Source: an uncultured Ilumatobacteraceae bacterium
Lineage (GTDB): Bacteria; Actinomycetota; Acidimicrobiia; Acidimicrobiales; Ilumatobacteraceae
DNA: 35,502 nucleotides
Reading direction: 5' to 3'
NCBI GenBank assembly: GCA_965601935.1
Contig: CBFCWZ010000001.1
Span: forward strand, 1-35,502
How positions within the stretch are numbered: the first letter of the stretch is position 1; every line of letters starts with the position of its first letter. The notes beneath the pieces were generated by a model. That model did no database searches and was not told the DNA's origin. It saw nothing but the letters and a program-made list of their open reading frames with translations. A program made the position numbers and the translations under genes. Of this stretch, positions 9,838 through 35,502 are shown piece after piece.

Positions 9838-10832
9838 CTCTCGTCTTCGGCGCCGTCGCCACCCTCGGGTCGTTGCGCTACGACACGCACGTGACGACCG
9901 CCCGTGTGTCGCTCGGTCTCGCCCCACGGGCGGGATCGACCCGCGTCACCCTCTCTCCACACGTGCGCGTCGACGCCGAGCCGGGCGACGACGCATCACT
10001 CCTGCTCCACGGGGAGCGCGCCGACGTCGAGACCTTCAGCGGCGTCGTCGTGGCGGTCGACCGCGACCTCGACCGCACCACCGTCACCCTCGTCGACGCG
10101 CTCGGCAGGCTCGCCCGATCGCGGCCCGGAACCACATTCGAGCAGCAGACCGCGGCGGCGATCATCGCCGCCCTGGCCGACGAGGAGGGGATCCCGACCG
10201 GTTCGATCGAGGCCGACACGGAGCTGCTCTCGTACGTCGCCGACCAGGGGCGGACCGCGCTGGAGCACACCGCCCGTCTCGCCGGATGGGCCGGCGCATG
10301 GGCGTCGAGCGCTCCCGATGGCGGGCTCACCGTGGCCCCCCTGCCCACGGGTCCTGCCGAACGGGCCCTTCGCTACGGCCGCGAGATCGCCGCGCTGCGG
10401 GTGCGTCGCCGGGAGACCGACGCCGACGTCGTCTGGGCCGGGTCGGGCCCGGCCGGGAACGTCGCGGCGCCCGACGCCCACGTCCACACCACCACCGTCC
10501 TGCCCGACGGGGCGCCGGGCCCCGCCCCACGGACGCGACGCGTCCCGGCGCCCGCCCTGCGCACACCGGCGGCAGCCACCGACGCAATCGCGGCAGCAGC
10601 CACCCGCAACTCCGGGGCCCGGCTCGTCGCGACCTGCTGGCTCCAGCCCGAGATCCGACCGGGGGCCTCGATCGAGATCGCCGATGCCCCCCAGCCCGAC
10701 TCGCTCGGACCCTGGTTCGTCACGTCGGTCACCCACCAACTCGGCCCGGGCCCACGTGGCGTCACCCGGATCGAGGCCGATCGTCTCGACCAGGGCGGCG
10801 GGCTGCTCGACGACCTCGGAGGGCTCCTGTGA
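9834..10832 (+). CDS. Phage late control gene D-like baseplate hub protein
   Basis: ATGA start/stop overlap at 9834-9837. It is 332 aa with gpD-like features, including TTFEQQTAAAIIAALADEEGIP..., LSYVADQGRTALEHTARLAGWAG and the C-terminal WFVTSVTHQLGPGPRGVTRIEA. It is followed directly by the gpV-like spike. Confidence 0.7.
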   Translation: MTLVFGAVATLGSLRYDTHVTTARVSLGLAPRAGSTRVTLSPHVRVDAEPGDDASLLLHGERADVETFSGVVVAVDRDLDRTTVTLVDALGRLARSRPGTTFEQQTAAAIIAALADEEGIPTGSIEADTELLSYVADQGRTALEHTARLAGWAGAWASSAPDGGLTVAPLPTGPAERALRYGREIAALRVRRRETDADVVWAGSGPAGNVAAPDAHVHTTTVLPDGAPGPAPRTRRVPAPALRTPAAATDAIAAAATRNSGARLVATCWLQPEIRPGASIEIADAPQPDSLGPWFVTSVTHQLGPGPRGVTRIEADRLDQGGGLLDDLGGLL

Positions 10833-11488
10833 GCGCCACCCTCTTCGACTCGGTGGCGCGCATCGCCCGCCACGAGGCGTCAGCCCGCCCGACGGTGTCG
10901 ATCGGCGTCGTCGTCGACACGTTCGACGGCAGCGGTGCTCCCGCCGACCATGCCGTCAGCGTCGAACTGCGCGAAGCGGGCATCGTGCTGCCGCGGGTTC
11001 CGCTCGCAGTCGGCGCACTCGGTTTCGCCGCGCTCCCGGCACCCGGCGACCTCGTGGTCGTCGCCTTCGCCGACGGCGACCATCACGCACCGGTCGTGGT
11101 CGGCCGGCTCTACAACTCCGATCTCGAGCCACCCCCACACGGTGAGGACGAGGTCGTCCTGCACCTGCCACCAGGTGCCTCGACACCGGAGGTGGCGGCC
11201 ACCATCCGGCCGACAGAGCCGACCGTCCGGCTCCAGGTCGGTGCCAATGTCGAGATCGAGGTGGCCGGGGACGCGATCCGCCTGACCGCAGGGGACGCGA
11301 CGGCTCTGGTCGAGGCAACCGGTGGGGGCCGCACGGAACTCACCGTCGGAGACGCCACCCTCGCCATCAGCGGCCGCGGTGACATCGAGATCAGCACCAG
11401 CGGGAAGTTCACGGTGCAGGCCACCGAGGTCGACATCCAGGGTTCCGCATCGGCAACCGTCACTGCGCCACAGGTGAAGGTGAACTGA
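10829..11488 (+). CDS. Baseplate spike protein (gpV / gp5-OB-fold, VgrG-like C-terminal beta-helix)
   Basis: GTGA overlap at 10829-10832. The OB-fold signature is SIGVVVDTFDGSG...VSVELREAGIVLPRVPLAV...PAPGDLVVVAFADGDHHAPVVVGRLYN. Repetitive beta-helix-like segments follow: VRLQVGANVEIEVAGDAIRLTAGDATALVEA...LTVGDATLAISGRGDIEISTSGKFTVQATEVDIQGSAS. Only the last 219 codons of track ORF 9674-11488 are real. Confidence 0.8.
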   Translation: MSATLFDSVARIARHEASARPTVSIGVVVDTFDGSGAPADHAVSVELREAGIVLPRVPLAVGALGFAALPAPGDLVVVAFADGDHHAPVVVGRLYNSDLEPPPHGEDEVVLHLPPGASTPEVAATIRPTEPTVRLQVGANVEIEVAGDAIRLTAGDATALVEATGGGRTELTVGDATLAISGRGDIEISTSGKFTVQATEVDIQGSASATVTAPQVKVN

Positions 11489-11889
11489 TGGGAGCACCCG
11501 CTGCCAACGGTTCCTCGATGGTCATCGCCACCGACATCCACATCGTGTTGGTGCCGTCCCCCGGCGGGCCCATCCCGATCCCACTCCCCCACCCGTTCCT
11601 GGGGCCGATCAGCGCGGCGCTGGTCCCCACCGTCCTGATCGGCGGTCAACCGGCGGCAACGGTCGGTTCGATGGCGAGCAACCAGGTACCGCACCTCCCG
11701 ACACCCCCTGGCATCGCGCTCCAACGGCCCCCGACCAACCAGGCGACGGTGCAGGTCGGCAGCGCCTCGGTCCTCATCGGAGGACAGCCCGCCGCCCGCA
11801 ACGGTGACACCGCCACGACCTGCAACGACCCGGCCGATGCGCCCGTCGGCACCGTGATCGCCCCGACTCCGACAGTGATGTTCGGATGA
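11488..11889 (+). CDS. PAAR-domain spike tip protein
   Basis: TGATG overlap. It is 133 aa with two PAAR-type repeats, VLIGGQPAATVGS and VLIGGQPAARNGDTATTCN. It lies immediately after the spike gene. Confidence 0.85.
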   Translation: MGAPAANGSSMVIATDIHIVLVPSPGGPIPIPLPHPFLGPISAALVPTVLIGGQPAATVGSMASNQVPHLPTPPGIALQRPPTNQATVQVGSASVLIGGQPAARNGDTATTCNDPADAPVGTVIAPTPTVMFG

Positions 11890-12422
11890 GCGACGTCGAC
11901 CTGGGCCGCGACCTCCGGGTGCTACGCGGGCCACCCGGGTTGGGCGCGCACGATGCCGCGCTGCTCGACCTCCGGCCGCGGCCGCGTCCCACACAGCAAC
12001 CGCGGCAGCCCCGATCGGCGCGGCGACAACCCACCGGCGCGTCCGAGCAGGGCTGGGCGCCCGAACCGCCGGGTGCCGGGGAGGTCGTCGACCTCGAGGT
12101 GATCGAGGGCCGGGAGAACCTGGCCCAGTCACTGGTGCTGCGCCTGCTCACCCCGCTCGGTTCGCTGGCCGACCTGGGCCATGCCGGCTATGGGTCGCGG
12201 CTGGGCGAGCTGATCGGACGCCGCAAGACCGAGTCGTTGCGCGGCCTGTGCCGGGCATTCATCCTCGAGGCACTGGAACGCGAGCCGCGTATCGCCCCCC
12301 GGGCCGTGTCGATCAGGTTCGACCTGCAACGAGAGACGTCGTCGTCGTTCGTGGTGGAGGTCGCGATTCGCCCGGTCGACGGCGGTGAGCCGATCACCGT
12401 GGGCGTGGAGGTGCCGCTGTGA
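11886..12422 (+). CDS. gp25/GPW-like baseplate wedge protein
   Basis: ATGA overlap. The core EGRENLAQSLVLRLLTPLGSLADLGHAGYGSRLGELIG...LRGLCRAFILEALEREPRI... fits the gp25-like lysozyme-fold family. An unusual ~70-aa R/P/Q-rich N-terminal extension precedes it. Confidence 0.8.
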   Translation: MSDVDLGRDLRVLRGPPGLGAHDAALLDLRPRPRPTQQPRQPRSARRQPTGASEQGWAPEPPGAGEVVDLEVIEGRENLAQSLVLRLLTPLGSLADLGHAGYGSRLGELIGRRKTESLRGLCRAFILEALEREPRIAPRAVSIRFDLQRETSSSFVVEVAIRPVDGGEPITVGVEVPL

Positions 12423-14131
12423 GCTTCACCCCGCGCGCCTATCCCGACATCGTGCGCGATGTTCTGACCACACTCACCGGCGGCACGGTCCGTGAGCAGA
12501 CGACGGCACCGGTCGAGGGGCCGATCGTCCTCGACCGCCTCGCCGACCGCCCGGTCCGACGTGTCTCCCACCTCGAGGGCGTGACCCTCGTCGGCGACAC
12601 AGAAGTGGCGGTCCGGTTCACCGACGCCGACTTCGAGCTCGTCGACACCGACGGCACCGGCACCTTCGACGCGATCTCGTTCCGGGACACGGGTCGGTCA
12701 CCGGTGCCGGGGAGCCGGCTCACCGTGAACTACTACCCGGTGGAGACGCGTCCCGCTCCGGTCACCGACCTGAACGTCGGGTCCGTCGTCCGCACCCTCC
12801 TCGAGTCGGTTGCCCGCGAGCTCGCGCTCGAGGAGCAGTACCTGGAGCGGATCTACCGCTCGGCCTTCCTCGAGACGGCGGAGGGCGGCTCACTCGACCG
12901 TGTCGCCGCCCTCGTCGGCGAGACGCGACTCCCGGCGGGTCATCCACTCGTCCGCGTCCGCTTCGCGCGCAACGCCACGACCGGCGGTCGCATCACCGTG
13001 CCGGCCGGAACGATCGTCACCGACGGTGACGGGAACCGCTTCCGCACCTCGGCCGTGCTGGTCCTCGAGCCGGGCGAGGCGTCCCGCGAGATCGTGGCCG
13101 TGGGTGTCACGAAGGAGACGGCGCCGGTCGCTGCGGGTGCGATCGACCGTCTGGAGGTGCTCGTCGCCGGTGTCTCGGCGGTCACGAACCCGGAGCCTGC
13201 CGCCCGGGCGGCAGCACCGGAGACCGACGACGCGTTCCGGCGGCGAACCCGCGGTGCGCTGCACGGAGTGGTCCGGGGAACGCTCGATGCGCTCCGCTAC
13301 GGCGTCCTCGGCGTGCCCGGCGTGAAGGACGTCACCCTCGTCGAGTTCCCGAACGGGGTACCCGGCGAGGTCCGCATCGATGTCGCCTACGACCAGCCGG
13401 GCAACACCGGGGCCGAGCAGGCGGTCGCCGAACGGATCGCCCAGCTCCGCCCGGCCGGGATCCGGGTGCTCTCCGCCGCCGCGGCCCATCGACGCGTCCA
13501 CACCACCATCGCCCTCGTACTCACCGGCACGGGCGTCTCCGGTGCCGAACTCGGTGAGCTCGAGGACGGGGTCGAGGAACGGGTCGCGGCCGGTCTCGCC
13601 GCCATCGCGCCGGGTGGCACCATCCGATCGAACCGGCTCGTCGCCACAGCCCTGGAGGACGCTCGGATCGCCGACGTGGCGATCACCTTCGCCGACGACG
13701 GCGGAAACCCGATCGAGTCGCTGACCCTCGCCGAGGGCGAGGTGCTCGAGGTCGTCCGTCCGTTCTCCTTCCCCCCGCCCGAGTCCGAGAGCGTCTCCGA
13801 GGACACGGTCCTCACCACAGCCGACGTCGATGCCCTCCTTCCCGTCACGCCCGAGATCGGGGTCACGATGGCCGAGGTGCAGTCGGCGGTCGAGTTGGCA
13901 TTCACGTCCCATCTCGGCTCACGTTCGCCCACCGCACCGCTGACCCTCGACGGGGTTGCCACCGCCATCCGCGACGACTCGCGCTTCGCGCTCGATCGCG
14001 CAGCCTCCACGGTCACCGTCGAGCACCAGGGCCGCTTCGTCCAGCTGATCGACGACGGTGGCAGCTACGCACCGGGAAGCGGCGAGACCCTGCGCCTCCG
14101 CACCCTCGACGTGATCGAGGCAACCTCGTGA
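12419..14131 (+). CDS. Baseplate J-like (gp6/gpJ) wedge protein
   Basis: GTGA overlap. It is 570 aa. Baseplate_J-like stretches include VGSVVRTLLESVARELA, ETAEGGSLDRVAALVGETRLPAGHPLVRVRFARN...GRITVPAGTIVTD, VSAVTNPEPA...ETDDAFRRRTRGAL and LGVPGVKDVTLVEFPNGVPGEVRIDV. Confidence 0.75.
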   Translation: MSFTPRAYPDIVRDVLTTLTGGTVREQTTAPVEGPIVLDRLADRPVRRVSHLEGVTLVGDTEVAVRFTDADFELVDTDGTGTFDAISFRDTGRSPVPGSRLTVNYYPVETRPAPVTDLNVGSVVRTLLESVARELALEEQYLERIYRSAFLETAEGGSLDRVAALVGETRLPAGHPLVRVRFARNATTGGRITVPAGTIVTDGDGNRFRTSAVLVLEPGEASREIVAVGVTKETAPVAAGAIDRLEVLVAGVSAVTNPEPAARAAAPETDDAFRRRTRGALHGVVRGTLDALRYGVLGVPGVKDVTLVEFPNGVPGEVRIDVAYDQPGNTGAEQAVAERIAQLRPAGIRVLSAAAAHRRVHTTIALVLTGTGVSGAELGELEDGVEERVAAGLAAIAPGGTIRSNRLVATALEDARIADVAITFADDGGNPIESLTLAEGEVLEVVRPFSFPPPESESVSEDTVLTTADVDALLPVTPEIGVTMAEVQSAVELAFTSHLGSRSPTAPLTLDGVATAIRDDSRFALDRAASTVTVEHQGRFVQLIDDGGSYAPGSGETLRLRTLDVIEATS

Positions 14132-15445: not shown

Positions 15446-15949
15446 ATGCGCGGCAGACTTCACCTGGAGGTCCGACGGAGGACAGGTGCCCTCGTCGCGG
15501 AGCGGACGGCGCGGAACACGGTGCTCCGGAGCGGTGGCGGGCTCGTCGCCGGGTTGTTCACCGGTGGCGGCGGGAGCATCACCCACATGGGCGTCGGCAC
15601 CAGCGACGCCGACCCCGCCTCGGTCACCGTGACCGCACTGGCCAACGACGACGGCGCCGGCGGTCCAGGACTCGAGGGGGACGTCACGACACCCATCCCC
15701 GCTGACGCCTTCCTCGTCTCGGACGACGAGACCCACCAGCGCATGGTCGTGCGTGTCCGCGCCACTCTGCCGGAAACGGCGGCGATCGGTACCGTCCGCG
15801 AGGCCGGGCTGCTGTCGCGTCAGGCCGATGGCGACGTGCTCTACAACAGGGTCATCTTCGCTCCCATCGACAAGGGCCCGGATCACGATCTCACCCTGTT
15901 CTGGGAGGTCGAGTTCCCATATGGCGATCTGCACTGGTTGGTGCAGTGA
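15446..15949 (+). CDS. Stand-alone tail-fibre N-terminal (baseplate-attachment, P2 gpH/Mu S N-domain-like) protein
   Basis: ATG at 15446 after GAGGAGG. It is 167 aa. The pattern NTVLRSGGGLVAGLFTGGGGSITHMGVGTSDA...VTALAND...VRVRATLPETAAIGTVREAGLLS...GDVLYNRVIFAPIDKGPDHDLTLFWEVEF resembles the N-terminal 'tail-collar fibre' domain (NxxTxAGxxxxA...I.H.A.GdG...T.L..E...irE.GLf...G.L...). This was recognised by eye only. Confidence 0.45.
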   Translation: MRGRLHLEVRRRTGALVAERTARNTVLRSGGGLVAGLFTGGGGSITHMGVGTSDADPASVTVTALANDDGAGGPGLEGDVTTPIPADAFLVSDDETHQRMVVRVRATLPETAAIGTVREAGLLSRQADGDVLYNRVIFAPIDKGPDHDLTLFWEVEFPYGDLHWLVQ

Positions 15950-16004: not shown

Positions 16005-16967
16005 ATGAGCTTCGTCAAAGGCGCGATGAACCTCAAATTGCTCGGCCACGCCGCCGCCAACCGGGATGCCGAGATCCGGCTCCGCAACGAAGCGACCGGC
16101 GAGCAGATCACGCGCAAGCCGTTCCTCGACGGCTCGCTGGTGGTCCGCGACATCGACCCCGGCCAGTGGCAGGTGGAGGTGATCCACCCGAACCTGATCG
16201 AGCCGCTGTTCCAGGATCGCGTCCGCGTGATCCCACAACCCCGGCCGATCTATGTGCCGGTTCCCGTCCCGTCGACCCGCTTCGAGGACAACCCCATCCG
16301 CGACCTGCCCGACGCGGATCTCACTCCGATTCAACAGTCGGCGAGTGCCGTCCGCAGCGCGGTGGCCCCGATCGCCGGCAAGGCACCCGGCGAGGTGATC
16401 CGCGCCGACGACTGGAACCAGCTCGTCGCAGCCGTCAGCGACCTCGCGGGATCGGTGTTGGAGTTGACCCGGCTGGTCAGTCCCAGCGGGCACGACCACC
16501 CCGAGATCGCGGCCAAGATCGACGAGGTCCAGGGCAACATCAGACGGTTCGTCGAGTCGTTCGGCCGCAGCCTGCTCGAGCTGCGCCGCGACATCGAGAA
16601 CCAGAGTGTGCGCCGTGCGACCACCGACATGCTCGACCTGGCAGGTGTGGTCGGGCCGGCCCGCGACTCGGTGCTGCGGCGGATGGACGACCTCGAGCTG
16701 TCCCTGCAGGCCACGCCGACGGAGTTCACCCGCAAGATGTCGGCAACGGGGGCGGCTCTGGCGTCGGAGGTCAACCGGATCGCCACGACGCAGGGCACGG
16801 AGGCGGAGGTGTTCCTCGCCGCGCCCGAGACCAAGCGGGTGCTGGTGATGGCCGAGCAGCTGAGCACCAGCGGTGTCCAGACGGCGCCAGAGGAGGAGCT
16901 GGAGACCTATCGCCGCACAGGGCTCGCCGCGGGCGGTTCCAAGTTCACGTTCGCCACGCGGCGTTGA
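16005..16967 (+). CDS. Fibre-like protein with an N-terminal CarboxypepD_reg-like beta-sandwich, an ADDWN...HxH module and a helical C-terminus
   Basis: ATG at 16005 after GAGGAGGG. AEIRLRNEATGEQITRKPFLDGSLVVRDIDPGQWQVEVIHPNL looks like a carboxypeptidase-regulatory-type domain. PGEVIRADDWNQLVAAVSDLAGSVLELTRLVSPSGHDHPE is shared with the next gene. Confidence 0.5.
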   Translation: MSFVKGAMNLKLLGHAAANRDAEIRLRNEATGEQITRKPFLDGSLVVRDIDPGQWQVEVIHPNLIEPLFQDRVRVIPQPRPIYVPVPVPSTRFEDNPIRDLPDADLTPIQQSASAVRSAVAPIAGKAPGEVIRADDWNQLVAAVSDLAGSVLELTRLVSPSGHDHPEIAAKIDEVQGNIRRFVESFGRSLLELRRDIENQSVRRATTDMLDLAGVVGPARDSVLRRMDDLELSLQATPTEFTRKMSATGAALASEVNRIATTQGTEAEVFLAAPETKRVLVMAEQLSTSGVQTAPEEELETYRRTGLAAGGSKFTFATRR

Positions 16968-16994: not shown

Positions 16995-18554
16995 ATGTCC
17001 AACGTTGCCGAGATCGAACGGATTGCCGCCCTCGTGGAGCGACTGCTCCCGCTGCGCGACCGTCGGCCGGGTGAGCTCATCGAGGCCGACGACTGGAATG
17101 TCGTGGTCAAGGCGCTCCTCGAGGTCGCCCGCGCCGTGGTCACCGAGGCGGAGACGGCCGTCGCGCCACACAGCCACGCCGACCAGGTCACCGCAGCCTG
17201 GCTCGACCCGGTGTTGCGCGCCCGCCTGGAGAAAGGTCCGCTCACCGATCCGGGGTCCGTCGCCCGGGTCGCCAAGCTCGAACGCACGATCCACGCTCTC
17301 CGCGCCAACATCGACGGCGTGGCCGGTGACCTCACCGGTGTCCGCGCCGCGGCGAACCGCCTGGAGGCGGCCGACCTCGCCCGAGAATCGAACCTGACCC
17401 GGGTCACCCGCAAGGTCGACGGGCTCGACGACGCGCGCGACGCCGTCACCGACGTTCGATCCACGCTCGCCGTTCTGCAGACCGACCTCGATCGCGTGTC
17501 CACGTTGGCCCGCGATCTCGAGGTGGACGGCGACACCATCTCGATCTCCTCGCTCGTCGATCGGCTGGGGGCGCTCGAGGGCTTGCGGACGCGGCTGACC
17601 GGACCGGACGGCGAGGAACTCAACGCGACGACCTTCGCACTCCGGCTCGCCGAGCTGGAGAACACTCTCGTGACGGAGGAGGAGCTCGACGAGGCCCTCG
17701 GCAACGTCCGCGACGACTCCATCTCAGATGAACTCCGCGCGCGGTTGGTCGCCGATGCCCGGACCGCGGCGCGGGAGCAGGCGGACGCCTCGAACACCGA
17801 GCTGGAGGGACGGCTGACCACCGACATCAACGCTCGGCTCGCAGCTGCGGAGAGCGCAGCGACCGCGGCCGCGGCCACCCGCGCCGAGGAGATCGGAGGA
17901 CAACTCGCCGATCAGCTCCGCGCCGAGCTCACCGCCGACATCTCCGCCGGGGACGACGCCGTCCGCGGCACGATCGACGAGGCACTGAGCTCTCTCACCA
18001 CGACGATTCGGACCGAAGTCGACGGGCAGCTCGGCCTTCTCCGCGGCGACCTCGAAGCGAACATCTCCGACGGGCTCGGCAACCTCCGCGAGGAGCTCCG
18101 GGCGACCATCGACGAGTCGATCACCAGCCTCACCTCACGGGTCGACCCGCTCGCCGGGCAGATCGCAGCCGCGGAGAAGGCCAGCGCCACCGCCTCGGCG
18201 CGTGCGGAGGAGCTCGCCCGCGAGCTCGCCCGCACGAGGACGACTCTCACGGATCTGGTCGAGGAGCGCGTTGCCGCAGCCAGGGCTGCCTCCCGCGCCG
18301 ACGCCTTCGCCGCCGACTCGAAGGTCACATCCGGCATGCGCGCCGAGATGGCCGCCGAGCGACAGCGGGTCGACCGGGCCCTCGCCGAGATGCAGAAACG
18401 GATCCCGCGGCTGGTCGATGAGCGCGTCACTACCGCCCGCACCGAGATCGAACGCGACCTCGACGCCCGGATCGACGAGACCCGCACCTCACTCGACGAG
18501 CTGCTCCGCCGTACCGAACGCATCACTCGCCCCGACCTCCGCCGTCCGCAGTAG
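16995..18554 (+). CDS. Long coiled-coil protein carrying the same ADDWN...HxH N-module (fibre shaft or ruler candidate)
   Basis: ATG at 16995 after GAAGGAAGGG. The N-terminus PGELIEADDWNVVVKALLEVARAVVTEAETAVAPHSHAD is paralogous to 16005-16967. The remaining ~440 aa are an uninterrupted D/E/R/L/A/T-rich heptad-like sequence, e.g. LRAELTADISAGDDAVRGTIDEALSSLTTTIRTEVDGQLGLLRGDLEANISDGLGNLREELRATIDESITSL. Confidence 0.6.
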   Translation: MSNVAEIERIAALVERLLPLRDRRPGELIEADDWNVVVKALLEVARAVVTEAETAVAPHSHADQVTAAWLDPVLRARLEKGPLTDPGSVARVAKLERTIHALRANIDGVAGDLTGVRAAANRLEAADLARESNLTRVTRKVDGLDDARDAVTDVRSTLAVLQTDLDRVSTLARDLEVDGDTISISSLVDRLGALEGLRTRLTGPDGEELNATTFALRLAELENTLVTEEELDEALGNVRDDSISDELRARLVADARTAAREQADASNTELEGRLTTDINARLAAAESAATAAAATRAEEIGGQLADQLRAELTADISAGDDAVRGTIDEALSSLTTTIRTEVDGQLGLLRGDLEANISDGLGNLREELRATIDESITSLTSRVDPLAGQIAAAEKASATASARAEELARELARTRTTLTDLVEERVAAARAASRADAFAADSKVTSGMRAEMAAERQRVDRALAEMQKRIPRLVDERVTTARTEIERDLDARIDETRTSLDELLRRTERITRPDLRRPQ

Positions 18555-19460
18555 GTGGTCGTGCTCACGGACTTCGAATCCCGTCTCGCCGACTTCCTCG
18601 GTAGCGGCCTACCCGCCCCCTTCACCGGCCGTGTCGAGGTGGCGCCCGGACCGGCTGCGAGCAACCAGCCCTCGATCACGGTCGCTGTGGTGGAGGCCCG
18701 CCGACTCGCACCCGACTTCGGCAGCACCCGTCCTGAACAGGCACCGGGTGCGGACGACCCGCGCCGCGTCGTGCGACTCGACTGCGACGTCGCCATCGAG
18801 GTCCGCGCGGCGACGAACCAGGGCCGCCCCCAGGCGGTTGCCGGGCTCGACGCCCTCCTCTACGAACTCGACCGCCCGGAGCTCGCCCGGACACCCACGC
18901 TGGAGTCACCCGCCGACGATCCTGGCTTCGTCATCGAGAGCCTGGAGGTCACTTCGGCCCGGACCGCCCCCGAGGAGGGTCTGCCGCGCCTGCTGCTCCA
19001 CGTCGTCGGCTGGTTCTGGCCACCGGATGCGCCGGGAATCACCGGCGCACCCATCGCCGAGGCCCGCGTGCGGACGGTGGCGAGGCCGGTCGACCTGGCC
19101 CCGTGGCCGCTCCGGCTGCGTGCCGGCGACGGGTCGATCGCCCTGACACTGACCACGTCGGCAGGCGGAACCACCCTGCTCGACGGGCAGGGTGTCGCCG
19201 CCGACAGCTTCGGGGCCGTCGCCGTGCGCGTGATCGACGCCGGCGGCCGGCCGGGAGCGGGAACTCTCGCCGGAGGCGACTCCGGGCCGCCGGGGAGCCG
19301 CCTGATCGCGCTGACCGACGGGACGGCCACCGTCGAGTACGTCCCACCGGCCGAGGCCGCCACCGACCACCTCGTCGTGTCCGTCGCCCGTCCGGACACG
19401 GGCGACGGCGCGGAGATCGGAATCGAACTCGCACGCTTCTCGATCGAGGTGACTGCCTGA
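18555..19460 (+). CDS. DUF4255 (Pvc16/Afp16-type) tail terminator/cap protein with a C-terminal beta-rich extension
   Basis: GTG at 18555 abuts the previous TAG. The N-terminus VVLTDFESRLADFLGSGLP...VEVAPGPA...PSITVAVVEARRLAPDF...VRLDCDVAIEV fits the DUF4255 pattern (short N-terminal helix, then 'V.fs.P......p.i.l.L..') seen in CIS cap proteins. The C-terminal ~150 aa look Ig-like: IALTLTTSAGGTTLLDGQG...VAVRVIDAGG...TATVEYVPP... Confidence 0.5.
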   Translation: MVVLTDFESRLADFLGSGLPAPFTGRVEVAPGPAASNQPSITVAVVEARRLAPDFGSTRPEQAPGADDPRRVVRLDCDVAIEVRAATNQGRPQAVAGLDALLYELDRPELARTPTLESPADDPGFVIESLEVTSARTAPEEGLPRLLLHVVGWFWPPDAPGITGAPIAEARVRTVARPVDLAPWPLRLRAGDGSIALTLTTSAGGTTLLDGQGVAADSFGAVAVRVIDAGGRPGAGTLAGGDSGPPGSRLIALTDGTATVEYVPPAEAATDHLVVSVARPDTGDGAEIGIELARFSIEVTA

Positions 19461-21055
19461 TGATGATCGACGCCGTGCTGCTCCTCGCGAAGTCGGCGGT
19501 CTCGGTCCAACTGCCCGTCTTCACGACCCTGGCGCAGGCTGCCCTCCTCCCGATCCTCACCACCCGTGACTGCGGCCCCGAGCCGATCCGCATCCCGTTC
19601 GACTGGGAGCCGCTCGCCGGCACGGACGGCATCGAGGTCGACCCGACCGTGCTGCGGATCGGGCCCCCCGGCTGGAACGCCGCACCGATCCCGCTCGGCG
19701 AGATCGTCCATCGTGCCGACGCGGGGCAGATCGTCGTCGAGATCCCGGCCGGTCACCGGGTCCGCAGCCTCCATCTGGCCGGGCTCCGGGATGCCACCGC
19801 CGACGTCGACCTCTCCGACGAAGCAGACCTCGACGACTGGCGCCTGGCCGTCACTCCTGTCGACCCGTCCGGGCGGTACTTCGCTCCGGTGGTCACGGTC
19901 CCCGCCGTCCGGGCGCGTGGCCAACGCGCAGCGATGTTCGTCGGCGGCTCGTTGCACGACCGCACCCTCAGCCTCCCCGACCTCGAAGCAGCATCCATCC
20001 GCCTCGCGCTGGTGAAGGGCGAGGCACCGGAATTCACCGACTCCCACACCCTCGAGGTCGACCGGGTCACCGGGTGGGCGGCACCCCATCCGCACGGCCT
20101 CACCGTGGCGGGGCCGGACGGAGCCACGCTGTGGTCGTTCCCGGAGACGCTGCTCCCGGGCACCCCGACCGCCGACGCGGACCTCACCGTCGGGGTGCAG
20201 GGATTCCTCGACGCCGCGTTCGCCGCGGGTGGGCCCCTGGGCGGCGAGGTCACCGTCACCGCGGCCCGTCCGGGCCGGGTCGGCCTGTCGATCCCCGCCG
20301 TGCGTGGTGCGTTGCTCCGCAACGTGTCCGGTACGACGACCGCTGCGCTCGCGGGCGACCCGACCGGCGTTCCGCTCGACGGAGACCTGCCCGCGGAGCT
20401 GCCCTCGTCGGTGGTGGCCGACGTCCACGTCCGCTACGACGGAATCCGGCTCGCCGAGATCTCCGACCTGCTCCCCTCCGACCGTGCCGTGGCAGGAACC
20501 GTCGTCGGAGCCGAGCCCGTCGTGCGTGTGCTGCCGCCCGGCGCTCTCCGCGACGAGCAACTGGCTCGGGTCGGAGTCGTCGGACGTGCCCCGGCCGCCT
20601 GCGAGATGTCGATCCACGTGGTCGACTGCTCGCCCGGGGCCGACCACGCCCCACTTGCTCCTCCCGCCGTGTCGACCGTCGGCGCCTCGACCGCGTCCGA
20701 CGACTTCGAGGTCGTCTGGGCGACATTCGATCCGCCGCTCCCGATCGACCGGCCGATCGGGATCTCGGCCACGGCCACCACCGGGACCTTCTGGTGGGTC
20801 GGCGAACCCGATCCGCTCGTACGACTCGCGATCATCGATCCCGACCCGGGTGGTCGGCCGATCCTCCTCGCGGGCGAGACGCTCCTGACCCTCGACGAGC
20901 CGACCCTCACCGTCACCCGTGCCAGCCTGCCCGGCGCCGGGTTCGCCGGGGGTGCGAGCGCGTCGGCGCCGCTCACGCTGGCCAGCGCCCTCTACTGCGC
21001 GATCGAGCTGACCGATCTCACGCTTCGCTACGCGCGACCGAAGAACGGCACATGA
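19460..21055 (+). CDS. Hypothetical protein (531 aa), no family recognised
   Basis: TGATG overlap with the cap gene, followed by two consecutive ATG codons. Codon bias is consistent with coding. The N-terminus MMIDAVLLLAKSAVSVQLPVFTTLAQAALLPIL is hydrophobic. I could not assign the rest to any family. Confidence 0.55.
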   Translation: MMIDAVLLLAKSAVSVQLPVFTTLAQAALLPILTTRDCGPEPIRIPFDWEPLAGTDGIEVDPTVLRIGPPGWNAAPIPLGEIVHRADAGQIVVEIPAGHRVRSLHLAGLRDATADVDLSDEADLDDWRLAVTPVDPSGRYFAPVVTVPAVRARGQRAAMFVGGSLHDRTLSLPDLEAASIRLALVKGEAPEFTDSHTLEVDRVTGWAAPHPHGLTVAGPDGATLWSFPETLLPGTPTADADLTVGVQGFLDAAFAAGGPLGGEVTVTAARPGRVGLSIPAVRGALLRNVSGTTTAALAGDPTGVPLDGDLPAELPSSVVADVHVRYDGIRLAEISDLLPSDRAVAGTVVGAEPVVRVLPPGALRDEQLARVGVVGRAPAACEMSIHVVDCSPGADHAPLAPPAVSTVGASTASDDFEVVWATFDPPLPIDRPIGISATATTGTFWWVGEPDPLVRLAIIDPDPGGRPILLAGETLLTLDEPTLTVTRASLPGAGFAGGASASAPLTLASALYCAIELTDLTLRYARPKNGT

Positions 21056-21056
21056 C

Positions 21057-24000
21057 ATGACAGTGATCGAACAGCTGGCGACGCTGGACTTCGCCACCAT
21101 CGACGACGCACTCGGGCGCGTGCGCACCGCCGTCGACGTCGATGGCGAACTCGACCTCGGTTCCCTCGATGTCGGTTCACTGCTCGGCGATCTCGGACCG
21201 CTGATCGAAACGGTCGAGCAGATCGACAACGACCCTGAGGCGATGCTCGTGCTCGCCCGGTCGGTGCTCGACGACCTCGGCGCGATGTTCGACCTCCCCG
21301 ACGTCGCCGAGTTGGGTGAGCTGGTGGAGGCCATCGCCGCGCTGACCGATCTGATGACCGGTGTCGTCGACGTGCTCACGAGTGGTGACGGACATGAGCT
21401 CGTCGATCGGCTCCTCACCGAGGTCGGGCAGTCACTCGACCTCTCGACGCTCATCGCCGACGTCGTGGGTCGCTCCGCGGACGCCCTCGGCTTCGACGTT
21501 CCCGACGTGCTGGAGGACGCCCTCGACCAGCTCGCCCGGCTCGGCGGGGGCATCGACGACCCGGCTGTTCTGGCCGAGGTCGTGTTGCGGAGCATCGGCG
21601 GGTTCGATCTGGGCGCGATCTCGGCGCTGGCCGTCGGCCTCTCGGGGTCGCTCTCCATCGTCGCCGGTGCAGGCGACCACTCGCGCGTCGCCGGGCTCCT
21701 GGTGTCGCTCGACGTGGAGATCGACGCGGCGATCGCCGCCGCCGGACCGGCCGACGACCTCGAGATCGAGACGCTGGTCGGTGCCGTCGAGCAGGTCTCG
21801 GACACCCTCGACCTGCTCGCCTCGACCGAGTTGCCACGTCTCGTGAACGGCGTTGCAGCCGATCTCCGGAGCGCCCGCAACCAGCTCACCGACCTCGACC
21901 TGGCGTCGAGCCTCGACGACCTGCGGGCCCATCTGCCCGAACGCGGCATCGACTCGCTCGAGGTGCTCGTCGGGCCGCTGCGCGAGATCGCCGCCGCCCT
22001 CGACACCGTCACCTCCGGGTCGATCACCGCCGGCCTCGCCGAGGCCCGTGGAGAGCTCACGAAGTTCGCCACGGAGGGCCCTCTCGGGGATCTGCTCGAC
22101 GGCATCGAACGGGGACAGCAGCTGGTCGTCCGCCAGATCCGTGCACTCCCGCTCGAAGAGGTACGCGACACGGTGGTCACCGCACTGCGCGAGCTCCAGA
22201 ACGAGATCCTCACGTTCCGAGGTTTCGACGTGCTCGACGAGATCGTGGCACCGATCCGTGCACTCGTTCCGCCGCTCCAGGAGCTCGACACGTCGTCCGT
22301 CGAGAACGCCGTCGACGAACTCGTCGCGATGGTCAACGGGGTCTTCTCGGACTTCCCGATCGAGCAACTCCGCGACGCAGTCGACGAGGTCGTCGACCCG
22401 CTCGGCGAGATCATCGATGAGGCGACACCACTGATCGAGGGGATCGCCGACGAACTGGAGGCGCTCGTGGTCCAGATCGACGCGATCGACTTCGACGCCG
22501 CAGGGGCGCAGGTACTGGAGGCGCTGTCGGCGATCCGCTCCGAGGTGCAGGGGGCACTCGACGGTGGCCAGGTGCCCGACGCCCTGAAGGCCGTGATCGC
22601 CGGCGTCGCGTCGACCCTGAAGGCGATGGACCTCGGGGTCGAGCTGAGCGAACCCTTCGAGGCCGCCATGGCCGAGATCGACGTCGGCGCGCTGCTCGAA
22701 CCGATCGAGGAACTGTGGTCCGACCTCGGTGCCGCTCTGGAACGGGTCACGCCCGAGGCCCTGATCGGTGAACTCGACCCACCCTTCGACGACCTGCTGG
22801 CGAAGCTCGACGACATCTCCCTCGCCCCGCTCACCGACGCGCTGAGTGACGTGTTCGACCGCCTACTGGGCGCGATTCGCAGCGCCGACCCACGTACCCT
22901 CATCGCTCCGCTCGAAGCAGAATTCCAGCAACTGCTCGCCACGCTACGAGGGCTGCTGGATCCCGCTCCTCTGTTCGCTCCGCTGCGCCACGCGTACGAC
23001 GAGTTGCACGGAAGCCTCTCCTCGATCGACGTCGAGGCCGCGATGAACGAGGTGCTCGGGGGCATCTCCGACTCGCCGACCATGCTCACCGAGGCAGTGG
23101 GGCAGGAACTCGGCCGCCGCGCCGAGGGTGGTGCCGCCCTCCCCGAGGCCACCGACGAGCTGTTCCGCTTCGGCGACATCATCCGGCCCCTCGCCGCCCT
23201 CGTGGCCGAGATCCGCGGCCGCCTGCACGGTCTCGGCCGGGACGTCGTGGGTGAGGGCCTCGGCCTCGTCGCCGACGCGACCAGGACGCTCCGGTCACTG
23301 CTCGACCCGGCCGACGGAATGGCGACCCGGCTGGCAGCTGCCCTCGACGAGCGCCGGGGCTGGTTCGACGCGACCGCCGGTGACGGTCCGCTCGCCGCCA
23401 CCCGGGCGCGACTGGTCGGCCTGCAGTCGGCGCTCGACGGGCTCACACTCGAGGCGGCTGCCAGGGCGCGCCTCGACGCGGCCATCGGCCCCGTCCGGCT
23501 GGAGGCGCGGGTGGAGCTGGAGGCGTCCGTGACCGCACCGGCGCTCGACGAGGCCGGGCGCGTCGATGCTGCGGCCTCGCCGGGCGGCGTCGGGCGCAGC
23601 ATCCGGCTGCTGACCCGCGCCCTCGACGAACTCCTCCCCGGCCCGCTGCTCGATGAACTCGTCGACCCGCGTGAGGAAGTGGCCGGCTTCATCGACGCAC
23701 TCATCGACCCACTCGATCCTGCGCCGCTGGTGCAGGAGCTCGATCAGATCGGCGAGCAGATCTCCACCACGCTCGCCGGGTTCGTCGACGAGCTCAGCGT
23801 CGGTCTCCTCGATCTCTGGGACGAGCTGATCGCAGGGATGCAGCCGCTCATGCCGACGAGCCTGGCGGCGCGGCTCCAGGCCGTCGTGACCGCGGTCGCC
23901 GAGGAGTTGACGGCGCTCGACCCCGGGGTCATCGAGGTGGAGGCTCGTCAGGTCGTCGACGTGGCGGTGGACCTGCTCGCCCTGCATTCGCCGGCCACCG

Positions 24001-24350
24001 TCGCGGAGGAGTTGGGTGATGTCTTCGATGTCGCCGTGGCAATCGTCGAGGAGCTCGATCCCGCAGATCTCTTGGGCGATCTCGATCCCTTCGCCGGCCT
24101 GCGCTCCGACCTCGAGTTGCTGCGGCCGTCCGTCGTGCTGGCCCCATTGGTCGAGCGGACAGCGGCCCTCACCGACGCGCTCGAACTCGTCGCGTCGATC
24201 GACCTCGACATCGCCGGAGAGCTCGTCGCCCGGCTCGAGGCAGCATTCTCCTCCGTGCTCGAGGGCGTGGAGCGCGAGTGGGACGGCCTGTTGGACGAAC
24301 TCAGTGGGCTGGCGGGCGGAGCCTCGACGAGTGTCAGCGTGGGAACGTGA
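21057..24350 (+). CDS. Hyper-acidic, Leu/Asp/Glu/Ala-rich helical-repeat protein (1097 aa), function unknown
   Basis: ATG lies 1 nt after the previous stop. By my reading there are only 4 Lys and no Cys in 1097 aa. About 23 Asp+Glu against 3 Arg occur in the first 100 residues. Recurrent degenerate motifs include L(D/E)P..L...L..L...LD.. (e.g. LLEPIEELWSDLGAALERV, LIAPLEAEFQQLLATLRGLLDPAPLFAPLRHAYDEL, LIDPLDPAPLVQELDQIGEQI). Confidence 0.7.
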   Translation: MTVIEQLATLDFATIDDALGRVRTAVDVDGELDLGSLDVGSLLGDLGPLIETVEQIDNDPEAMLVLARSVLDDLGAMFDLPDVAELGELVEAIAALTDLMTGVVDVLTSGDGHELVDRLLTEVGQSLDLSTLIADVVGRSADALGFDVPDVLEDALDQLARLGGGIDDPAVLAEVVLRSIGGFDLGAISALAVGLSGSLSIVAGAGDHSRVAGLLVSLDVEIDAAIAAAGPADDLEIETLVGAVEQVSDTLDLLASTELPRLVNGVAADLRSARNQLTDLDLASSLDDLRAHLPERGIDSLEVLVGPLREIAAALDTVTSGSITAGLAEARGELTKFATEGPLGDLLDGIERGQQLVVRQIRALPLEEVRDTVVTALRELQNEILTFRGFDVLDEIVAPIRALVPPLQELDTSSVENAVDELVAMVNGVFSDFPIEQLRDAVDEVVDPLGEIIDEATPLIEGIADELEALVVQIDAIDFDAAGAQVLEALSAIRSEVQGALDGGQVPDALKAVIAGVASTLKAMDLGVELSEPFEAAMAEIDVGALLEPIEELWSDLGAALERVTPEALIGELDPPFDDLLAKLDDISLAPLTDALSDVFDRLLGAIRSADPRTLIAPLEAEFQQLLATLRGLLDPAPLFAPLRHAYDELHGSLSSIDVEAAMNEVLGGISDSPTMLTEAVGQELGRRAEGGAALPEATDELFRFGDIIRPLAALVAEIRGRLHGLGRDVVGEGLGLVADATRTLRSLLDPADGMATRLAAALDERRGWFDATAGDGPLAATRARLVGLQSALDGLTLEAAARARLDAAIGPVRLEARVELEASVTAPALDEAGRVDAAASPGGVGRSIRLLTRALDELLPGPLLDELVDPREEVAGFIDALIDPLDPAPLVQELDQIGEQISTTLAGFVDELSVGLLDLWDELIAGMQPLMPTSLAARLQAVVTAVAEELTALDPGVIEVEARQVVDVAVDLLALHSPATVAEELGDVFDVAVAIVEELDPADLLGDLDPFAGLRSDLELLRPSVVLAPLVERTAALTDALELVASIDLDIAGELVARLEAAFSSVLEGVEREWDGLLDELSGLAGGASTSVSVGT

Positions 24351-32497: not shown

Positions 32498-32699
32498 TAC
32501 AGCGTAGGATCTCGACGGGAGGAGGTCAAGGGGCCGATCAGGTTTCTGCGACGCCGGATCTCCTCCTCCATCAGCGGCCTCAGAGCCGCGTTGACCATAC
32601 CGTTCTCGCAGGTCGGAGGATGAGTCGCGTCGAGAAGTCGAGACGACCACGTCGATACCGCCTCCATTGACGTCCAGTGCCGGCTGGCGTAGTCTCAGC

Positions 32700-32713
32700 C
32701 GAGAGCGCTCCCA
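32700..32713. promoter_or_regulatory. CebR-type LacI operator palindrome (box 2)
   Basis: CGAGAGCGCTCCCA has the reverse complement TGGGAGCGCTCTCG, which is 12/14 to the CebR consensus TGGGAGCGCTCCCA. It lies 26 nt upstream of the paralogue-2 ATG at 32740. Confidence 0.55.
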
Positions 32714-32739
32714 GCCCCCTGGCAGATCGGAGGATGGAG

Positions 32740-33747
32740 ATGCGGTTGAAGCTCGAGGACATCGGTCGGATGGCGGGTGTCTCGCGGTCCACCGTGTCCC
32801 GGGTGATCAACGACGAACCGAACGTGAGCCCCGAGGCCAGGGCACGCGTCGACGAGGTGATCCGTCGGACCGGTTTCACACCCCATGCCGCTGCCCGCTC
32901 TCTGGTGTCGCGGCGCAGCGGCATCCTCGGGCTGGTCATCCCGAGCCGGGTCCACGACCTCTTCGAGGACCCCTATTTCGCCCGCCTCATCCGCGATGTC
33001 ACGGTCGCCGGCAACACCGCCGGAACGACACTGTCGCTGTTCCTCTTCCAGACCGAGGAGGAGGAGCGGGAGATCTACCCCCGGGTGGTCGAGTCGGGTT
33101 TCGTGGACGGCGTGTTGATCACCGCGACACGAATCGGTGACCCACTTCTCACTCGGATGAGGGCGAGTTCGATGCCGATCGTCATGATCGGTCGGCCCGA
33201 CACCGACGGGGTGAGCTACGTCGACGTCGACAATCGCGGTGGCGCACGCCGTGTCGCGGAACACCTCGTCGATCTCGGGCGGCAGCGGATCGCAATGATC
33301 GCCGCGCCCGCCAACACCACGACCGGCGCAGATCGGCATCTTGGTTTCGTCGACGGCCTCACCGAGAGAGGAGTGGTGGCCGATCCCGAGCTCCGAGTCG
33401 TCGGGGACTACTCCGAGGCGAGCGGATACGAGGGAATGAAGTCACTCCTGGCCGAGCGACCGGACGCCGTCTTCGCCGCGTCCGACGCGATGGCGATCGG
33501 AGCAATGCGCGCCATCCGCGAGGCAGGTCTCGCCATCCCCGACGACATCGCAGTGGCCGGGTTCGACGGGTTCACTGCGTCGGAATCCACCGACCCGCCA
33601 CTCACCACGGTGCGTCAACCCGTCGACGCGACTGCGCAACACGCGGTTCGCCTGCTGAACCGGCTGATCGACGGTGAGATCCATGAGCCCACCGCCGAGG
33701 TCGTCCCCGTCGAACTCCTCCCCCGCCGGTCGACCGCCGCCACCTGA
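32740..33747 (+). CDS. LacI-family transcriptional regulator (CebR-like), paralogue 2
   Basis: ATG at 32740 preceded by GGAGGATGGAG (alternative ATG at 32734). It starts MRLKLEDIGRMAGVSRSTVSRVINDEPNVSPEARARVDEVIRRTGFTPHAAARSLV. It appears roughly two-thirds identical to paralogue 1 along its whole length. Confidence 0.85.
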   Translation: MRLKLEDIGRMAGVSRSTVSRVINDEPNVSPEARARVDEVIRRTGFTPHAAARSLVSRRSGILGLVIPSRVHDLFEDPYFARLIRDVTVAGNTAGTTLSLFLFQTEEEEREIYPRVVESGFVDGVLITATRIGDPLLTRMRASSMPIVMIGRPDTDGVSYVDVDNRGGARRVAEHLVDLGRQRIAMIAAPANTTTGADRHLGFVDGLTERGVVADPELRVVGDYSEASGYEGMKSLLAERPDAVFAASDAMAIGAMRAIREAGLAIPDDIAVAGFDGFTASESTDPPLTTVRQPVDATAQHAVRLLNRLIDGEIHEPTAEVVPVELLPRRSTAAT

Positions 33748-34769: not shown

Positions 34770-35502
34770 CTAGCCCTTCACCGCACCCGAGGTCAGCCCG
34801 GAGATGATGTAGCGCTGCAGGAACATGAACAGCACGAGCATCGGGAGCATCAGCATCAGGATGGCAGCGGCGAGCTTGGGCCAATCGCTGCCGTAGACAC
34901 CCTCGAAGACGATCAGACCCTTCGTGATGGGGAAGAGGTCCTCGTTGGTCAGGTACACGTTGGCGAGGATGAGTTCGTTCCAGATGTTGATCGCGTGGAT
35001 CACCGTGACCGTCGCAATGGCGGGTCGGATGAGCGGGATGAGGATCGACCACACGAACCTCACGTAGCCGCACCCGTCCACCGCGGCCGATTCGTCGAGC
35101 TCGCGCGGGATCGACTTGATGTAGTTGACCATGATGATCAACGCGATGGGGTTGACCAGGAACAGCATGATGTAGCCCTGCCGGGTGTTGAACATGCCGA
35201 GGTTCAGGATCAGCTGGAACTGCGGGATCAACGCCGGCGGGAGGAACAGCGCCACGACGTACAGGGTGAGCAGGGCGCCGGCACCCCGCACGTACCCCCG
35301 GGCGATCGGGAAGGCGACGAAGACCGACATGATCACGAACAGGGTCGTCCCGACCACCGTGTAGATCAACGAGTTCAGCAGGAAGCGAGGGAAGTTGGCG
35401 AGCTCCCACGCATCTGCGAAGTTGGCCAGCTGGAAGCTCTCCGGGAGACCGGTCGGGTCGGCGAAGAACTCCGGCAGCGTCTTCATCGACGCGAAGATCA
35501 AG
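34770..35502 (-). CDS. Carbohydrate ABC transporter permease (MalG/CUT1-type), C-terminal part (gene continues beyond the right edge)
   Basis: Multi-pass membrane protein with the EAA-loop region IPRELDESAAVDGCGYVRFVWSILIPLIRPA, typical of binding-protein-dependent sugar permeases. It ends 20 nt upstream of the GH16 start, so the two are probably co-transcribed. Confidence 0.85.
   Translation of the reverse strand, partial: LIFASMKTLPEFFADPTGLPESFQLANFADAWELANFPRFLLNSLIYTVVGTTLFVIMSVFVAFPIARGYVRGAGALLTLYVVALFLPPALIPQFQLILNLGMFNTRQGYIMLFLVNPIALIIMVNYIKSIPRELDESAAVDGCGYVRFVWSILIPLIRPAIATVTVIHAINIWNELILANVYLTNEDLFPITKGLIVFEGVYGSDWPKLAAAILMLMLPMLVLFMFLQRYIISGLTSGAVKG

Follow-up and report, generated by a model that had tools for sequence, protein, structure and literature searches.

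A family of acidic 23-residue-repeat proteins paired with YD-shell genes in ATPase-less contractile-tail loci, with a possible tape-measure role

A contractile-tail gene cluster was analyzed in a 35,502-nucleotide (nt) stretch of DNA from an uncultured Ilumatobacteraceae bacterium (GenBank assembly GCA_965601935.1, contig CBFCWZ010000001.1, positions 1 to 35,502; hereafter, the window). The cluster runs from a tail sheath gene to a giant gene of the YD-shell/RHS-repeat type, and the last gene before the giant encodes a hyper-acidic protein of 1097 amino acids (aa), hereafter the acidic protein, which a preliminary description made from the sequence alone had singled out. The results are best explained if the acidic protein belongs to the structural core of the central axis, made up of tube, hub, and spike, of a phage-tail-like contractile particle that has no ATPase. 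More specifically, our leading though tentative reading, to which we give somewhat less than an even chance, is that of an inner-tube protein of the tape-measure class that is coupled to the YD-shell protein.

Translation of the forward strand at 21057-24350 gave exactly the ORF of the preliminary description, with four lysines and no cysteine. GC content at codon positions 1, 2, and 3 was 0.80, 0.43, and 0.87 (the window has ~70% GC), which is a coding signature, and the gene is a real coding gene. A 1614-aa antisense ORF (18860-23704, reverse strand) that overlaps it and the upstream genes lacks the high-GC3 (third codon position) signature and was dismissed as a shadow ORF typical of GC-rich DNA. 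The ATG of the acidic gene lies 1 nt past the stop codon of the upstream gene, and its own stop codon (24348-24350) is separated by 1 nt from the ATG of the giant at 24352, as had been described. These 1-nt gaps on both sides suggest translational coupling of the acidic gene both to the upstream gene and to the giant.

The protein consists of 17.0% leucine, 13.9% alanine, 10.4% aspartate, 9.4% valine, 8.6% glutamate, and 8.6% glycine, and its 208 acidic (D+E) and 64 basic (K+R) residues give a net charge of -144 and an isoelectric point (pI) of 4.05. Net charge per 100 aa was -20 over residues 1-100 and varied from -2 to -20 thereafter. The claim that composition is extreme along the entire length thus holds for the N-terminus and is slightly overstated for the whole, residues 701-800 being nearly neutral. 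Scarcity of lysine and cysteine, presented as a special trait, is common to the whole locus (the giant has five lysines in 1923 aa, the sheath has five lysines, and several neighbors have no cysteine); only acidity sets the acidic protein apart within the locus, and acidity is a trait of its family. No enzymatic domain was found in Pfam and NCBIfam scans, in line with the reported lack of enzymatic motifs. The accompanying claim that hydrophobic motifs are lacking is less accurate, given a grand average of hydropathy of +0.35 and a single uncharged 22-aa segment (residues 185-206). The protein has no transmembrane-grade segment (highest 19-residue Kyte-Doolittle mean, 1.86).

A scan of a genome collection with window-specific peptides gave no match, and a tighter family alignment then found relatives. 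Thirteen relatives of the acidic protein were returned by a word-index search, and an exhaustive profile search returned 999 representatives, each standing for one 50%-identity cluster, at E ≤ 1e-3 (334 at E ≤ 1e-30). No family member carries a functional name; they are annotated 'hypothetical protein', and a literature search turned up no description of the family or of its tail lineage. Hosts belong to several phyla and include metagenome-assembled genomes (MAGs) of Ilumatobacteraceae and Nitriliruptorales, Occultella glacieicola, Mycolicibacterium agri, M. senegalense, a Mycobacterium strain, an Agromyces strain, Actinophytocola, a complete 5.6-Mb genome (GCA_002075285.3), and MAGs labeled Acidobacteriota, Proteobacteria, and Nitrospina. 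Cultured carriers of the locus are M. senegalense ATCC 35796, M. agri, O. glacieicola, and one Agromyces strain.

Length, charge, and period statistics were taken from a full-length sample of 120 family members. Although mostly only 17-25% identical to the window protein, these members are 1013-1147 aa long (median, 1094.5; standard deviation, 18), and all are acidic (pI 4.05-5.33; net charge -20 to -144), with the window protein as the most extreme. In matched loci, the coefficient of variation (CV) of length was 0.5% for the acidic protein, leaving out one outlier (locus L005), versus 4.7-8.4% for the neighboring g519 and g540 and for the giant.

The family profile showed a sharp autocorrelation peak at 23 residues (z = 10.6) and a lower one at 46 (4.9), with no signal at 22 or 24, and 23 residues was the strongest long period in 101 of the 120 individual members. 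Non-overlapping segments of the acidic protein matched each other in profile-profile comparison with E-values down to 4e-11. The consensus of the repeat unit is P-x-x-L-L-x-E-L-D-x-x-F-D-x-L, and about 47 units of 23 residues fit in 1097 aa. Prolines are the best-conserved residues of the family, several of them exactly 23 residues apart (933, 956, and 979, then 1002 and 1024); those at 933, 956, 979, and 1024 are conserved in the family alignment. Whole units were neither gained nor lost, even in the shortest member. The 'dozens of degenerate helix-forming units' of the preliminary description are therefore borne out by the period, the number of units, and the 51 helices predicted below, except that the literal motif L[DE]P occurs only eight times (1.5 expected from shuffles; [LIVM][DE]P, 11 times). 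At its extreme C-terminus the acidic protein has a short, conserved, non-helical tail of the GGxSVSVSVS type, with alternating serine and valine, that looks like an amphipathic beta-strand.

AlphaFold prediction from a 13-sequence alignment had a mean confidence (pLDDT) of 64. With 120 sequences, the pLDDT rose to 79.8, with a predicted template-modeling score (pTM) of 0.49 and 246 residues at ≥ 90. This deeper model has 51 helices, mostly of 14-25 residues with breaks of 2-5 residues, and no strands, so the protein is predicted to be all-alpha. Foldseek searches against the PDB matched long coiled-coil proteins (MukB, JetC), HEAT/ARM-type alpha-solenoids, designed helical-repeat proteins, and UmbC (8w20), which was the recurrent match of highest probability (0.51-0.80). 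A search of the viral models in BFVD gave, at similarly low template-modeling (TM) scores, a siphovirus 'minor tail protein' and several tape measures as top matches. No fold could be assigned from these two PDB searches and one BFVD search because all TM-scores were 0.14 or less; for the deeper model, the best TM-scores against solved solenoids were 0.03-0.12, below what superposition on a HEAT/ARM protein demands.

A sequence-profile search of the PDB returned ApoB-100 (E 6e-8), ApoA-IV (E 5e-6), ApoA-I, coronavirus HR1, designed bundles, FtbJ, and a phage tape measure, together with weak matches to sigma-1, a short tail fiber, and adhesin coiled coils, a spectrum that we read as generic amphipathic-helix similarity. 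Among Pfam, NCBIfam, and PHROG models, the acidic protein itself hit only PF04513, below the cut-off, and phrog_1204 'tail protein' (E 1e-3). When 13 family members were scanned, only one or two matched tape-measure families in PHROG (E ≥ 0.013), and two, which are distant members, matched the apolipoprotein family PF01442 below threshold (E ≥ 0.064). No Pfam matches to HEAT, ARM, or ALF, or to DUF1795 (EagR), DUF4123, or DUF2169, were found in the family. With nothing convincing in Pfam, NCBIfam, PHROGs, PDB sequences, or Foldseek, the statement that no characterized contractile injection system (CIS) component resembles the acidic protein stands.

Genomic contexts were examined for approximately 20 loci. 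All are contractile-tail loci without an ATPase, and they fall into three gene orders. The window type was found in at least 15 loci, with identical synteny from PAAR to the giant. In the second order (L021 and L022), sheath and tube genes are followed by a gene for a 176/183-aa protein, a gene for a disordered protein, and the circN gene, then by the acidic gene (1140 aa), the YD-shell gene (708-750 aa), gpD, gpV, and, further on, gp25 and J. In the third (L097), the acidic gene (1131 aa) and the YD-shell gene (746 aa) are followed by two genes and then by hub, spike, PAAR, and gp25. The placement of the acidic protein in a CIS-like contractile-tail locus thus extends from the window to every homologue context examined, and a check for homologues outside tail-like loci found none among them.

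A YD-shell/RHS-repeat gene lies directly 3' of the acidic gene in all three gene orders. The sole exception is L005, in which a 1013-aa acidic protein is followed by a 690-aa TIG protein and no RHS homologue. In most loci the two genes overlap or are separated by at most ~10 nt; the gap widens to 69-215 nt in three of them. In two of the three orders (L021/L022 and L097), the pair lies just upstream of the hub and spike genes. Iterated searches identified sheath, circN, gpD, gpV, gp25, J, the 434-aa and 167-aa proteins g434 and g167, the acidic protein, and the YD core as common across locus types; judged by these homologies, conservation of the acidic protein and of the YD-shell gene equals that of the canonical tail core.

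The YD-shell homologues encoded 3' of the acidic gene are 708-2276 aa long across the three locus types. The giant is kept end to end among window-type relatives, and its YD core (approximately residues 190-530) is shared with the 708-aa versions; it ends in Ig-like-looking sequence. Neither the giant nor its homologues have the DPxGL Rhs cleavage motif. A canonical Rhs toxin was considered for the giant and rejected, since besides missing this motif the giant showed neither an RHS-core equivalog score nor a variable tip. Because of its full-length conservation and the missing motif, the giant is not a typical polymorphic Rhs toxin and appears from its sequence to behave like a structural YD-shell protein. 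The preliminary description had also proposed that the acidic protein is a chaperone neutralizing basic regions of the giant. This idea does not hold, since the giant is an acidic protein too (net charge -89, pI 4.92), with only its first ~300 aa about neutral, at +9. An arginine-rich ORF at 30133-30723 (pI 12, net charge +47) was considered as a basic partner and set aside as probably spurious, as it has a GC3 of 0.51 and no counterpart in relatives.

Tyrosinase, PpoB2, and DUF7868 genes recur beside the giant in two loci. In L001 (13412-21638), the tyrosinase domain is part of the giant itself, which has 2276 aa, and genes for DUF7868 and PpoB2 come next. In L003 (19115-21167), a PpoB2 gene and one that combines tyrosinase with DUF7868 are found past the end of the giant on the other strand. 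The window has no tyrosinase, PpoB2, or DUF7868 gene. An oxidative cross-linking activity may be an accessory of this tail lineage. The L022 version of the cluster may lie on an integrated element because excisionase-like (HTH_17) and integrase genes precede it (1805-3192) and a Peptidase_S74 fiber gene is found at its end (22847-23426).

Table 1. Genes of the contractile-tail cluster in the window.
Feature	Coordinates	Strand	Remarks
Tail sheath	5698-7392	+	Phage_sheath_1C; first gene of conserved cluster
Tail tube protein, 126 aa	7412-7792	+	Directly after sheath in all relatives
Slot protein, 444 aa	7838-9172	+	Between tube and hub genes; relatives recovered by synteny
DNA_circ_N/DUF6046-like hub-associated protein, 223 aa, pI 4.05	9166-9837	+	
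gpD-like baseplate hub	9834-10832	+	
gpV-like spike, 219 aa, OB domain	10829-11488	+	Separate gene
PAAR spike tip	11488-11889	+	
gp25-like sheath initiator	11886-12422	+	
Baseplate_J/gp6-like wedge	12419-14131	+	phrog_6, E 2e-39
Second wedge-like protein, 434 aa	14128-15432	+	Conserved in all locus types
167-aa conserved protein	15446-15949	+	phrog_5417; common to window type, L022, and L023
320-aa lineage-specific gene	16005-16967	+	
519-aa lineage-specific gene	16995-18554	+	
301-aa lineage-specific gene	18555-19460	+	
531-aa lineage-specific gene	19460-21055	+	
Acidic protein, 1097 aa	21057-24350	+	Stop-free ORF confirmed; basis: composition, GC3, repeat period, AlphaFold, family
YD-shell/RHS-repeat giant, 1923 aa	24352-30123	+	PF05593; YD_repeat; Rhs core structures E 4.5e-9

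The cluster starts at the sheath gene, because relatives share nothing upstream of it, and the sheath itself has no sequence relative among solved structures in the PDB. A frameshifted VgrG was considered for a 604-aa ORF at 9674-11488 and rejected, since relatives encode gpD and gpV as separate, overlapping genes. The circN-like protein (9166-9837) is as acidic per residue as the acidic protein (net charge -27 over 223 aa). For the 167-aa protein, no homologue was detected in L097 within the stretch compared, and the four genes between 16005 and 21055 had no detected homologue in the other locus types (L022, L023, and L097). The flanks of the cluster are chromosomal, with a PhoX alkaline phosphatase gene on the left (11-2338) and two genes for LacI-family regulators and one for an ABC permease on the right (31296-33747 and 34770-35501). 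Within the window, the tail cluster was not found to be accompanied by genes for capsid, lysis, integrase, or regulator proteins.

No AAA ATPase domain was detected in any window ORF scanned. Operational criteria separate extracellular contractile injection systems (eCIS), which have an Afp15-type AAA ATPase, from phage tails and R-type tailocins (PMC12210884). By these criteria, the missing ATPase makes the window locus resemble phage tails and R-type tailocins more than strict-sense eCIS of the Afp/PVC type.

The gene between tube and hub genes in the window encodes what we call the slot protein (Table 1). In 14 loci it is a single ORF of 401-601 aa (CV, 12%) with a conserved N-domain of ~170 aa, a hypervariable, disordered middle rich in P, S, T, G, and A, and a conserved C-terminal helix, which bears the nearly invariant motif LAxxLxxEADLRG[IV]xR. 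A word-index search for homologues returned the query alone, and the N-domain profile had no match in the PDB. The N-domain aligns with the 176/183-aa proteins of L021 and L022, where the slot protein is split into two genes. The sole Pfam similarity of those 176/183-aa proteins is to PF10109 (Phage_TAC_7; E 0.04-0.06, below threshold), a family of gpE/gp41-type chaperones. On this sequence evidence, the slot protein is a possible tail-assembly chaperone and a rival tape-measure candidate.

A contractile tail of determinate length needs a tape measure. Since the ATPase-less cluster is placed with phage tails and R-type tailocins, which need one, a tape measure is expected in the locus. We favor the acidic protein for this role because every other canonical role has a candidate among the genes common to all locus types. 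It is also the only long helical protein conserved in all locus types, and no other long helical gene was found in the covered parts of the L021, L022, and L097 clusters. In Mu and P2, the tape measure is encoded just upstream of the hub; in L021, L022, and L097 the acidic gene lies just upstream of the YD-shell and hub genes, which comes close to this arrangement, and in L021 and L022 it also comes downstream of the weakly PF10109-like 176/183-aa gene. The tape measures of TP901-1 and lambda have been described as helical, with periodic repeats and a short C-terminal extremity of coil or beta structure (PMC5099701). The modeled anatomy of the acidic protein, all-alpha with periodic repeats and a short non-helical C-terminus, matches these descriptions. 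Its near-constant length at ~20% identity, its conservation on a par with the tail core, and the suggested translational coupling on both sides also count in favor of this role. Weak similarity signals (the BFVD tape measures, FtbJ, the phage tape measure in the PDB, and the PHROG matches) point weakly in the same direction. Of the roles that the preliminary description had offered, a very long ruler or scaffold is therefore the one most favored by the evidence; that the protein works as a ruler and does so in the lumen is what we infer from anatomy, gene content, and gene order.

In such a scheme, several copies of the acidic protein would lie inside the tube during assembly, and the beta-strand tail at the C-terminus would attach either to the hub or to the YD-shell protein, which is co-translated. 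The fixed number of 23-residue helical units would set tail length, and the uniformly acidic surface would keep the protein from adhering to a lumen that derives from a phage tail built to conduct DNA, allowing its expulsion on contraction. A helix rises 1.5 Å per residue, so that 1097 aa would span about 165 nm. A bolder version, which we consider rather improbable, is a 'DNA-surrogate ruler' whose ~47 acidic helix-plus-proline units would count tube rings while sliding through the DNA lumen, and whose C-terminal beta-strand would drag or release a hub-mounted YD-shell cage, making length control and payload delivery one two-gene module. Each unit would then correspond to about one tube ring (20 helical residues at 1.5 Å plus a short linker, or ~39 Å).

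Several observations weigh against the tape-measure reading. In an indel-compensation test, the ratio of observed net indel length to the random-sign expectation was 0.69 in the acidic protein, compared with 0.76 in J and 0.57 in g300, and showed no length selection on the acidic protein beyond that on ordinary folded baseplate proteins. Length constancy alone is no proof of a ruler. In the window and ~15 similar loci, the acidic gene is the last but one in the operon, after the baseplate genes, and the classical tape-measure slot is filled by the conserved slot protein. A disordered tape-measure-like protein, Tme, is known from a Streptomyces CIS (PMC11126660), and by analogy the slot protein could itself be a disordered tape measure. 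The acidic protein has no significant match to any tape-measure family in Pfam, NCBIfam, or PHROG models and was found to lack the hydrophobic or transmembrane segments common in tape measures. The family was not found in 50,697 phage genomes (tblastn with the window protein and one distant member), and a pattern scan of IMG/VR gave no match. The gain in pLDDT from 64 to 80 with the deeper alignment came with ~20-residue helices packed against each other. This packing and the alpha-solenoid matches of Foldseek suggest, at the level of a model, a folded architecture and not an extended coiled coil; packed helices without gain or loss of repeats are explained no less well by a defined fold than by an extended ruler.

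The strongest competitor builds on this last point. The acidic protein would be a folded alpha-solenoid adaptor or scaffold, an acidic superhelix of ~24 helical hairpins. By binding the YD-shell protein, it would position or assemble this partner on the hub, spike, or baseplate, with fixed geometry and no ruler function. We regard it as unlikely, although it comes closest to the favored reading. The strict, tightly coupled association with a YD-shell gene, which recurs in each of the three locus types, agrees with it, as do the confident helix-helix packing predicted by AlphaFold, the HEAT/ARM-type solenoids, designed helical repeats, and UmbC among the best PDB Foldseek matches, and the helices conserved in place, as expected for a defined tertiary architecture; the window-type pair also lies at the operon end, away from the hub genes. 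However, the TM-scores of those matches do not exceed 0.12, so they indicate no solenoid homology, and the pTM is low. The acidic protein keeps a constant length while its proposed partner varies from 708 to 2276 aa, and L005 retains the acidic gene without an RHS homologue. An adaptor would also leave the L021, L022, and L097 clusters without a visible tape-measure candidate.

A less probable alternative, which we rank well below the adaptor, is that the acidic protein is a tape-measure-derived cargo, a polyanionic lumen payload expelled on contraction, with the slot protein setting length. Sle1, which is helical and tape-measure related, is packaged inside particles of Streptomyces lividans; it is encoded outside the structural slot, beside an adaptor, and particles without it look normal (PMC13277306). 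Tme (PMC11126660) is a similar precedent. The conserved acidity of the family and the position of the window gene at the operon end, which is where the effector genes of Afp and PVC lie, are in keeping with such a cargo. The acidic protein, however, has neither an effector domain nor a transmembrane hairpin nor a C-terminal module that varies, and no DUF4157 partner was found among the window proteins. Moreover, effectors normally differ in length and content, but the acidic family keeps nearly the same length from phylum to phylum and is core-like.

An external fiber, tether, or network protein, whose elongated helical shaft on the baseplate would carry the YD-shell/Ig-domain giant as a distal adhesin, is the least probable. 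In its favor, the window-type gene follows the baseplate wedge genes, where P2 and Mu encode their tail fibers, the giant's end looks Ig-like, and the weak profile matches include sigma-1, a short tail fiber, and adhesin coiled coils. On the other side, a continuous coiled-coil shaft would hardly tolerate a proline every 23 residues, and in L022 a separate Peptidase_S74 fiber gene lies elsewhere in the cluster, with the acidic/YD pair among the hub genes. Fibers are also normally the most variable tail parts, whereas the acidic protein is among the most length-constant.

The unusual features of the acidic protein are its exact, proline-punctuated, acidic 23-residue repeats, its near-invariant length across phyla, and its obligatory coupling to a YD-shell gene. 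The exact period, the length shared by the family, and the pairing had all escaped the preliminary description. Approximately 1000 clusters of a protein of ~1100 aa have thus gone without annotation, in a tail lineage that has no structurally characterized relative. As a tape measure, the acidic protein would stand out among rulers for its regularity and tractability, since adding or deleting n 23-residue units gives a quantized prediction of length, and the cultured carriers make this question directly testable. If true, the tape-measure reading would mean a new core partnership of a ruler and a YD-shell protein in a phage-tail-derived machine, which bears on how payloads are carried and on the engineering of particle length and cargo.

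Among known systems, the Rhs modules of type VI secretion systems (VgrG, PAAR, chaperone, and Rhs) resemble the present loci in having a YD/RHS-repeat gene near spike and PAAR genes together with a dedicated accessory gene. They differ in that the accessory protein here, the acidic protein, has 1100 aa and is unrelated to EagR/DUF1795, DUF4123, or DUF2169, and that the giant lacks a DPxGL motif or polymorphic toxin tip and is conserved over its full length among relatives. Alpha-solenoids, including UmbC of the Streptomyces umbrella toxin particles, share with the acidic protein a local 3Di pattern of stacked helical hairpins; TM-scores of at most 0.14, the lack of Pfam ALF/HEAT matches, and a different genomic context set them apart. 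Exchangeable apolipoproteins (ApoA-I, ApoA-IV, and apolipophorin III), which include the best PDB profile matches, likewise consist of tandem, proline-punctuated amphipathic helices of ~22 residues. In contrast to theirs, the polar faces of the acidic protein are almost without basic residues, its period is 23 and not 22, and it has no lipid context, so the likeness is probably one of convergent repeat chemistry.

The effectors of Streptomyces CIS (Tme of S. davawensis and Sle1/Sle2 of S. lividans) are also products of actinobacterial contractile particle loci in which a large helical protein has a dedicated partner gene, and they have been inferred or shown to lie in the lumen, where the acidic protein would lie if it is a tape measure. 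Unlike them, it lacks a DUF4157 partner (the domain had no match in any window protein), a transmembrane hairpin, and an enzymatic or variable module at the C-terminus; it also lacks extensive disorder, is invariant in length, and is core-like over several phyla. From the tape measures lambda gpH, TP901-1 TMP, P2 gpT, Mu gp42, and Afp14/Pvc14/Cis14, it differs in its proline-punctuated 23-residue repeat (versus aromatic repeats of 11 or 18 residues), its strong acidity, and its lack of hydrophobic or transmembrane segments and of significant sequence similarity, and its gene lies mostly after the baseplate genes, coupled to a YD-shell gene, and was not found in the phage genomes searched. With these same proteins it shares great length, a predicted all-alpha structure with internal repeats and a short non-helical C-terminus, a place in a tail cluster (beside the hub genes in two of the three locus types), and constant length within the lineage.

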